The notes beneath the pieces were generated by a model, which had not been told where the DNA came from, did no database searches, and saw only the letters and a list, made by a program, of their open reading frames with translations. The position numbers were made by a program, and so were the translations under genes. From positions 1 through 64,000 of the forward strand of contig JYFJ02000454.1 of NCBI GenBank assembly GCA_000934665.2: 64,000 bases of DNA, in the 5' to 3' direction. The DNA is from Catajapyx aquilonaris (Eukaryota). Shown in pieces: positions 18,301-21,300 of the stretch (position 1 is the stretch's first letter; each line of letters starts with the position of its first letter).

Positions 18301-21300
18301 TCAGGGGAATACCTCCAGCACTCTGTGATTAATTTATGAGCCTTTTGATCAAATGATTGGCCCTGATTCCTGCCACTGTCCCTTATTACGGTCATCAGTA
18401 CAAAACTGACATGTATTGTCACTCTGTGCAATAAAAAATTAACGAAGCCAGTGGGGAAGGGATGTCAATCAAGATTAAAGAGGGGATGATATACTTTATG
18501 GATGCCCCGTACGGTTCTTTAAAAATTGCTTGCTCTGGTTATACTGCAGACACGTACAGTGTGCTGTTTCAACCACTGAATATTATACTGCCTTGCACGA
18601 TGTTAAAAATTGATAATAGCTTCCAGTAGTATGTGCAAGTCAACAACTCTTACAGTAACGGTACATTGAATAAATATTGCCTAGAGCAGAAATTACTCCC
18701 AGAGTAACTCTGGCATTGATCATAGCATGGTTTGACGATTCCACCGCTCACCCTCACCTCATTCACAAAGCTCAGAAAAGCATTAGTTGAGTCCCAAAAA
18801 TGAGCGTGACCACAACCCAATAAAAACAGTCCAAACAATATTAACAGCACCACACATGTGTTTTGTAAGGTGGATGGTATAAAAGGGACTGTACATGGGG
18901 ATATGGTTTGAACAGGGCTATACTTACTCGCAGTAGTGTGAGTAGTAACTATGGGAGGGCTCTCCATATTGCAGGGCACTGCAAAAGGTGAGAAACAACA
19001 GAAAATTAACCAAGGCCAGAACCGAGGGGTGGGGAGAAAATGCAGTCTGCATGCACTCAAAAGCCACTCATCTGGGCTCCGTTGTTGTTTTGCTTTTCGG
19101 CTTTGGTAACAGCACAGGTTTGTGTGATAAAATAATGGCGAAAAAAGGGGTGCATATCAGGAGGCAGGGTAGGTGCAGTTTGTGTGTGCATATACATATA
19201 TGTGTGTGCAAGCCACCACAATAACAAGCCATGCCCAGGAGGGGGAGGTAAGCCCAGCACCATTTGTACACCAAAAAGGTATATATAATCACACCTTTTC
19301 CCAGCATTTCTGATTTAGGATGGCAAACAAAGACTATACACTCCCTGGCTCCCAACACCAACACGACCTTTCCCTGCAAACCCCCTTGCTTTTGCGTGCA
19401 TACCACTGCCATTCTCCAGCGTGCGTAAAGGCTCGCAGACGATTCGACATGTATTTACATCCCACCCCGATCATGGAGCAGAGAGATCCTTTTTCAAGAG
19501 TTGACAAAGAAACTTACACTTACTGTATGTTACGACAAGTCCTGCGTGTTTGCAGCGTGAAACAAGAGGAAGAGAACAGCACCACATCAGATGATTATGG
19601 TAGCCTGGCCATTACAACAGCCTCTATGTGACAATTCTCTTTGCTCAAACTTAAGACAAACAAAAAAAGTGCTGTGCTTCTTTCTGACTTGAGGCTGTTG
19701 TATTGTACTTTAGCTGAAGCTTAACAAATTTTCCTTGCTTTGGCGTGTACTCTAAATGCTGCACAGTGTCGTAGGTCAGGGTTCTGAGGAAAAAACTGCC
19801 TACCTTCCCCGCTCCGATACTCGAGAGTGTCACAATCACTTGGCTGCTTCTTGTTGCAGTCTTCACTGCTTCTGCTGAAAGAACATCAAGAGACCAGTGC
19901 TCGTAAGCAAATACAGACCACATAAGATGAGTGAAGCAATTGCTTTAACCTACACCCACCTTCGGAAGAAGATCACCACCATGATGATGATGACAACAAT
20001 CACCACCACCACTCCTACTGTGATCCCAGCAATGATCCTCACTTGCAGATTGTCCTCGTCACTCACATATGCTGTGGAGCCAAGCATAACTTCATCATAT
20101 ACTGCCTTGCACGGAGGCTTACGCCATTATATTTGGATAGAGATCAACAAACCTGTACCAATCATCTGCCCTGTTGTCTTGTATATGGTGGTGCTGAAAT
20201 CACCCCAGCCGTGAGTTGTCTTGGCCCTCACCTGGAACCCATAGTCTGTCCGCTGCTTCAGGCCAACAAAGGGTGCATCCATCTATGAGGAGTGTTCACA
20301 CATTAGCATTTATATTGTGCTTTGAAACTATTAAGGGGCTCCATAACCAAGGAATAATCAAACAAAATCTTTAATTCAGCATATCACTCATTCGATGCTC
20401 AGTCACATGTTCATTCAGTTTAATGTATTCGGCCATGGTATTACCAGCAACATTTGAATTAGCCTACCAAACCAATAATACTGCTAGGGAATACTCGCCT
20501 TATTGGTAAGCACACTAGTTGAATTGTGCTCATATCCCTTGATGAAGCAACGAACTTCATACATCTCAATCTCAGAGAATGGGTCGTCAGGAGCATCCCA
20601 AGCCAGGGCAATTTCAGTGCTCTTTACACTGGTGACGTGAACATTGGTGACAGTGGATGGGACGGATGCCTCAGTGGTGACTGTGATGTCCACGTACTCA
20701 GAGTCCCCTGCCATGGAAGAGGCCCCATTCTCCGCAAACACTTGGAAGCGGTATGTGGTCACTGGATTGAGCCCTGATATAGTGACCTTGGTGTCATTAA
20801 ATGTCTCAGTGTTGGGCACATATGTCACTCCATTGCCACATGCATCACACATGACTCTGTATGTTGTATCCACACGGCCACCTAAGTAATGAGGTGGGTT
20901 CCAGCTCAGCACCACAGTTGACTGATCCACAAAGTTGACCGTCAAATTCTGTGGTGCACTTGGAGGTTCTGAAATTTAAGTCACGGTTAGGACTTACATG
21001 TAGTAACAAGGTACACCACAACATTTCTACTAAAATATTCAACAGTATGATTATTATTAATGTGACAGCTGACATCATGTGCAATTATGTACCCTTGGTG
21101 GTACGCAGCTAAGTAAAGTCAACACAGTGACTCACCACAAATTCAACAAAATATCACAATGAATAATAGAGTTACATGTGTTGGTATATTGTCAGTGTCA
21201 TATATACAACTGGGGACAGGATATAGCATCAAGCAGAAAAAAATAGCAGAAAACCCCAGGTCAGTTTAAAGTTAAATTTTGGTTGAAAAGCGTGCTTTGT

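Follow-up and report, generated by a model that had tools for sequence, protein, structure and literature searches.

The Eph gene and its juxtamembrane exons

The stretch of DNA analysed here, hereafter referred to as the window, comprises 64,000 nucleotides of a contig from Catajapyx aquilonaris. It carries on its minus strand an Eph receptor gene, whose located coding exons lie within positions 15074..32511 (the first coding exon was not located). The encoded domains follow in the order Ephrin-binding, FN3, transmembrane (TM), tyrosine kinase and SAM, and this is the only Eph of the genome, with one Ephrin_lbd match in the whole assembly. Ten other long open reading frames of the window gave no Pfam match.

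The juxtamembrane part of the gene, all on the minus strand, includes a constitutive exon recognized from its homologous peptide (19804..19874), a 51-nt cassette exon that is conserved in arthropods (18928..18978), and an exon that, by homology, encodes the pair of conserved juxtamembrane tyrosines together with the N-lobe of the kinase (17520..17911). In the same intron region lies an 18-nt cassette microexon of phase 1-1 (19524..19541, minus strand), translated as GLVVTY, which is placed by the sequence, by homologues and by an orthologous genomic exon. It is found 262 nt past the end of the juxtamembrane exon and 545 nt ahead of the 51-nt exon, with the kinase exon start further downstream, and its acceptor ends at 19542. 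Two GTAAGT donors follow it in tandem: the first (19518..19523, minus strand) becomes coding, as S-K, when the second (19512..19517, minus strand) is used, which yields an exon of 24 nt.

This arrangement agrees base for base with the initial annotation, which had proposed the 18-nt exon, its upstream-shifted pyrimidine tract and TGC, and the GTAAGT pair 6 nt apart; the flanking sites it had named, at 19804 upstream and at 18978 and 17911 downstream, are equally in place. Translation of all combinations bears out its further statement that both lengths are in frame, as the skipped, 18-nt and 24-nt forms keep the frame with or without the 51-nt exon. Inclusion of 18 nt turns the junction Val into G-L-V-V-T-Y-M, a net gain of six residues, and use of the second donor turns it into G-L-V-V-T-Y-S-K-L, a net gain of eight. 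Microexons are defined as exons of 3–27 nt, and the present one has 18 or 24 nt, AG/GT flanks and a preserved frame. The two donors had also been called perfect, which holds for positions +1 to +6 but not beyond, since each matches 7/11 positions of the U1 consensus. The donor of the upstream juxtamembrane exon scores 7/11 as well, and the constitutive donors of the gene score 6–8.

The tandem donor motif alone is not rare, because its 13-mer occurs 26 times in the genome, versus 44 for a reversed control. A filter for the whole architecture, run over both strands of the 64 kb, returned a single match, the microexon itself, against 0.04 per shuffled window, a significance that is overstated since the thresholds were picked after the site had been seen. 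As a control, the same filter was used to look for the spg microexon; it gave no match in the six of seven DOCK loci of the animal's own genome that were scanned, but as these loci are short and do not necessarily include the orthologue, the control was set aside. The decisive evidence beyond chance for the microexon is its conservation, as judged from the sequence comparisons below.

The microexon is conserved across Pancrustacea

A query with the kinase exon, blind to the insert, was used to sample Eph proteins. Among the 120 proteins listed, 12 carry the 18-nt type of insert and five the 24-nt type, 21 have a G-K-K or G-N-K insert and one has another insert, while 74 have none and seven lack the region. 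Together with two region searches and two cluster look-ups, this gave 380 proteins, of which 359 possess both flanks: 72 of the 18-nt type, 17 of the 24-nt type, and 270 without insert. This set is enriched for the insert, and the counts are therefore not frequencies.

Among insects, the annotated isoforms with the 18-nt type come from Odonata, Ephemeroptera, Orthoptera, Blattodea, Hemiptera, Coleoptera and Hymenoptera; outside insects, they come from the barnacle Pollicipes and two malacostracans. In insect, barnacle and malacostracan isoforms alike, the insert sits at the same junction as in the window. Isoforms with and without it are found within a single species, for instance in Cimex, Cryptotermes, Cloeon and Oratosquilla, as gene models rather than reads. 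None of the 14 lepidopteran proteins that cover the region has the insert (15/136 cluster members being listed), nor do the chelicerate proteins among those listed. Two myriapods and a springtail, each represented by one gene model, lack it as well, but these three models are too thin a sample to speak of absence. The named proteins were sampled without Diptera.

Genomic copies were sought by a pattern scan of metagenome contigs, which returned 22 loci. Ten of these are Eph, eight by tblastn (one weakly, with an E of 0.058) and two by DNA identity; they represent two lineages, a hymenopteran type and a termite type, in which the orthologous exon is flanked by AG and GTAAGT. All are insect lineages, with no crustacean DNA among the loci. 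The other 12 loci do not resemble Eph, and were set aside as chance matches.

It could be argued that the six codons are not an exon at all, and that the site is a chance AG...GT pair in an intron. This reading is hardly credible, and conservation refutes it: annotated isoforms throughout Pancrustacea share the same six inserted residues, and introns orthologous to this one contain the same exon. Judged by these comparisons, the microexon is a genuine, old cassette exon of arthropod Eph.

The initial annotation had pointed to GLVVTY in insect Eph isoforms and suggested that the exon was ancient. Such isoforms do exist, in seven insect orders, and the insert is common to insects, a barnacle and malacostracans; rather than the lack of any GLVVTY-like insert in other arthropod Ephs, which would have spoken against the exon, 89 insert-bearing proteins were found. 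Its remark that annotation pipelines usually miss exons this small does not hold for this one, as RefSeq and GenBank isoforms of many species carry the insert (for example XP_076066146.1 and XP_023708863.1), including the 24-nt form in malacostracans. These entries are automatic gene models only, and no description, tissue data or function for them was found in the literature searched.

The acceptor of the microexon is unlike others in the gene

I compared the microexon acceptor with the acceptors of the same Eph gene, 14 in all, using composition as a proxy for strength. A CU-rich polypyrimidine tract is shifted upstream, to positions -40 to -15 (19556..19581, minus strand), and is followed by a TGC at -13 to -11 (19552..19554, minus strand) and by an A/C-rich, T-poor run to the AG, which makes for a weak 3' splice site. 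The fraction of pyrimidines is 0.84 at -40 to -15 versus 0.4 at -13 to -4. The distal value and the number of CU tetramers (three) are the highest of the 14 acceptors, and the proximal fractions of pyrimidines and of T (0.1) are both the lowest. The AG-free zone, at 61 nt, is the third longest, and a TGC between -5 and -14 is found in this acceptor only. There is no CTAAY within 100 nt, with a CTGAT at -49. The 51-nt cassette exon has no upstream TGC, and a strong proximal tract.

Outside the window, two independent insect sequences were available for comparison. The hymenopteran-type acceptor has a TGC at -11, an AG-free zone of 131 nt and a CTAAT at -80, without the upstream-shifted tract (distal pyrimidines 0.4, no CU tetramers). 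In the A/C-rich termite-type acceptor, the only TGCs lie at -30 and -39, and CTAAY is missing over 100 nt. Both are T-poor proximally. Since the TGC, the branch point and the tract differ in these two types, the architecture is only partly conserved.

A candidate target of neural microexon regulation

For exons that depend on the eMIC domain of Srrm234 (SRRM3-4), PMC8797185 describes five features on the 3' side: a very weak acceptor, a long zone free of AG, a UGC close by, a CU-rich tract and a strong CUAAY branch point, the last being enriched rather than required. The window acceptor displays four of these five 3'-side features, namely the weak site, the AG-free zone, the UGC and the CU-rich tract; a strong CUAAY is not present. 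For flies, the same source adds a weak 5' splice site and a strong upstream 5' site (PMC8797185); here the donor upstream and both microexon donors score equally, as noted above.

The C. aquilonaris genome contains a match to the SRRM_C/eMIC domain (PF15230, 31.1 bits, with a cut-off of 27), the second half of which lies 1426 nt downstream, in frame, so that the two halves splice into an intact domain. A 1426-nt intron thus divides the eMIC coding sequence of this Srrm234 (L038, at G000:C584:80185-81808) into two exons. An eMIC gene is expected of any bilaterian, its expression is biased to neural tissue, and in holometabolous insects the eMIC is encoded by an alternative last exon, according to the parts of PMC8797185 available. 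The 1426-nt intron could be the site of a tissue switch.

Because the acceptor is the weakest of the gene by proximal pyrimidines, and because the genome encodes an intact eMIC domain, neural control by the eMIC, as put forward in the initial annotation, is plausible, and on balance I regard eMIC-driven neural inclusion of the Eph microexon as probable. The acceptor would be too weak for default use, such that most cells would skip the microexon. Neurons, as the cells producing the Srrm234 isoform with the eMIC, would include it, perhaps with the help of the TGC and of the CU tract upstream. A TGC within a 10-nt window is however common by chance, and the presence of an eMIC gene in the genome gives no link to this exon.

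It is possible, if rather less likely, that this is a real, conserved cassette exon under the control of another factor, specific for a tissue or a stage, or that its weak acceptor merely results in partial inclusion. The acceptors of the window, the hymenopteran type and the termite type differ in where the TGC lies and in how the tract is shaped, which is in keeping with this possibility, as is the fly eMIC sheet of PMC8797185, which has no Eph exon among its 171 rows. The fly tables list Eph twice, with a 48-nt 'ASE' exon and a 191-nt 'LowPSI' exon (PMC8797185), and the former, the likely fly counterpart of the neighbouring 51-nt cassette (orthology by size only), is a general alternative exon. 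On the other hand, the agreement of the window acceptor with four of the five features, and the ordinary acceptor of the 51-nt cassette in the very same gene, argue for eMIC control. Overall, the explanation that I consider fairly probable from the sequence is that of a long-standing optional microexon in the one Eph receptor of arthropods, with eMIC-type neural inclusion and two lengths.

Two lengths, and the history of the double donor

The 24-nt type was found in 17 proteins, all malacostracan, from eight genera that span decapods, a stomatopod and an amphipod (one unnamed record was assigned by its place in a Hyalella cluster). In the mantis shrimp Oratosquilla, the annotated isoforms comprise all three forms, skipped, 18-nt and 24-nt, which supports the original proposal that both donors are usable. 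The 24-nt type is present in none of the 63 insert-bearing insect proteins, and both insect genomic types, on hymenopteran-type and termite-type contigs, have a single GTAAGT, with the second missing from the orthologous place; the scan pattern had required the first GTAAGT, but had not imposed the lack of a second. Barnacle isoforms show the 18-nt form only, in 5/7 with the region. As the two donors of the window should pair with U1 about equally, C. aquilonaris quite likely produces receptors of both lengths, with six or with eight added residues.

A quick maximum-likelihood tree of this single gene (31 rows) groups the window Eph with the hexapods (SH-aLRT 96), separate from the clade of insects (97), and with a springtail as its neighbour (83). 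It therefore belongs to a non-insect hexapod in this tree, and the double donor may predate insects. Taken from these sequences, the simplest history would be a double donor in the common ancestor of hexapods and malacostracans, which was lost in winged insects. A +6 donor shared by an early hexapod and malacostracans would be a rare and very old tandem-donor event.

A less likely alternative, albeit one with some weight, is that the second donor is a neutral micro-duplication, of separate origin from that of malacostracans, and perhaps unused in C. aquilonaris. The 13-mer is no more frequent in the genome than its control, and the barnacle has the 18-nt form only; the malacostracan double donor is itself deduced from protein rather than DNA. 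Moreover S-K-L is dictated by the donor hexamer and the first bases of the next exon, so that identical residues are no evidence of selection at the protein level. Yet the same exon uses the same +6 offset in eight malacostracan genera, and the second hexamer is perfect in a non-insect hexapod, both of which argue for the shared ancestral donor.

Possible effects of the insert on the receptor

From barnacle to bee the insert is nearly invariant, and hydrophobic. In the window, its aromatic residue precedes the first of the conserved juxtamembrane tyrosines by 15 residues, and in the cricket by 16. The two conserved juxtamembrane tyrosines of Eph receptors are autoinhibitory. Solved Eph structures align only from about residue 609 of the query, past the insert at 592–597. 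An AlphaFold2 model of the 18-nt isoform of the cricket, built on a 40-row alignment, has a pLDDT below 50 over residues 567–623, and a partly poor kinase; it is therefore uninformative on the fold of the insert.

The initial annotation had described the insert as adding a tyrosine to the juxtamembrane region. A tyrosine is indeed present in 78/89 insert-bearing proteins, but the remaining 11, all from decapods, have a phenylalanine, which weakens the idea of an essential phosphosite. I therefore weakly prefer a different role, suggested by the sequence, in which the insert would lengthen the flexible linker upstream of the first autoinhibitory tyrosine and add a short hydrophobic docking motif. 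It may thereby adjust how the receptor binds its partners, clusters or is trafficked, instead of providing an essential phosphosite.

That the insert acts through its tyrosine, as a phosphosite or a sorting signal whose following residues are set by donor choice, is improbable. Apart from the prevalence of tyrosine, the sequence V-T-Y-S-K-L of the 24-nt form fits both the ITIM-type and the YxxPhi consensus as usually defined, and V-T-Y-M-G-V of nine hymenopteran proteins fits too, although most 18-nt contexts do not. Against this, S-K-L follows incidentally from the letters of the donor, and 10/17 proteins with the 24-nt form are among those with phenylalanine, because of which the motif reading is kept at low probability. 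The linker and docking role hence remains the preferred one.

A fuller scenario can be drawn from the same sequences, which I consider improbable as a whole. The microexon would be neuron-specific and as old as Pancrustacea, and its doubled donor would be a nested second switch that completes a V-x-Y-x-x-L docking or endocytosis motif by the autoinhibitory tyrosines. The second donor would have been lost in insects, the tyrosine in decapods, and the exon in Lepidoptera (perhaps flies), with the ancestral three-state switch kept in C. aquilonaris.

Comparison with known microexons and Eph variants

The eMIC-dependent neural microexons of Drosophila and mammals, as presented in the available part of PMC8797185, resemble the Eph exon in being short and frame-preserving, with a weak acceptor, a UGC, an AG-free zone, a CU tract, and the regulator in the genome. 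The Eph exon differs in that it is a candidate only, has no CUAAY, and is without an Eph counterpart in the fly list; a double donor is not among the target features described there (PMC8797185). Closer in size are the insect-conserved 18-nt neural microexons of spg (DOCK3-4) and syd, also in signalling proteins, of which that of spg is conserved across insects (bioRxiv 10.64898/2026.09.05.749416, in the part available). These are however in other genes, and are present and tested in Drosophila, unlike the Eph microexon, which was seen neither in the 14 lepidopteran proteins nor in the fly table. The main text of that preprint, so far as available, has no occurrence of 'Eph' (bioRxiv 10.64898/2026.09.05.749416).

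No description of the Eph microexon was found in the literature searched, though Torres-Mendez 2019 (PMID 30833759) or the supplements of the preprint may list it. In the parts consulted, a cricket ganglion transcriptome notes four Eph isoforms without describing them (PMC6040699), and PMC2121056 and PMC8553928 hold nothing bearing on it. The Eph microexon with its two-length donor is thus already part of automatic annotations, and apparently undescribed. A median of 27% of insect neural exons are conserved in another species, in the available text of bioRxiv 10.64898/2026.09.05.749416. Deeply conserved neural exons are scarce in arthropods, and here six near-invariant residues lie beside the autoinhibitory segment of an axon-guidance receptor. 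On these grounds the microexon makes a good candidate for a neural isoform with a function, one to which fly-centred work would be blind; the understanding of microexons and of Eph receptors is unchanged unless its regulation and function are demonstrated.

Vertebrate EphB receptors presumably also have juxtamembrane insert variants, such as those of chicken Cek5/EphB2 and Cek10/EphB3. These are alike in being optional inserts between the TM helix and the juxtamembrane tyrosines, and a comparison of P0416 with P0447 shows, in an EphB1-like gene model from a fish, an insert at what seems to be the corresponding junction. The GLVVTY motif is found in 0/149 of the 50%-cluster representatives newly listed, and with no sequence similarity between them, the vertebrate inserts appear at most convergent.

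Other variants of the Eph gene

Several further variants were identified at or near this junction. The acceptor of the juxtamembrane exon in the window has three tandem AGs, with starts at 19874, 19871 and 19868, which would allow single-residue variants. At the microexon itself, a tandem acceptor in termite-type loci (such as L030) accounts for the single additional Ala of cockroach and termite isoforms (P0183, P0184, P0189), and two Tenebrio isoforms (P0314, P0315) lengthen the microexon by 20 residues upstream. The 51-nt cassette exon is found, in a diverged form, in all 14 lepidopteran proteins examined.

The G-K-K or G-N-K insert of 21/120 proteins (P0017, P0057, P0066-P0099; chelicerates where named) occurs at the same junction as the microexon. 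Its first codons fit a donor that is read through, and it may therefore arise from a +9 alternative donor rather than from a microexon. A 32-residue alternative exon is also found at this junction in decapods (P0059, P0122, P0137 and relatives), where no listed isoform combines it with the microexon; tblastn revealed no counterpart in the intron of the window.

Finally, a candidate alternative last exon lies between the kinase and SAM exons (16417-16339, minus strand), encoding 25 residues followed by a stop, with an N-P-Y-Y motif (NPxY-type). Similar ends are found in annotated damselfly, locust, leafhopper and beetle isoforms, which points to a conserved, SAM-less Eph isoform.
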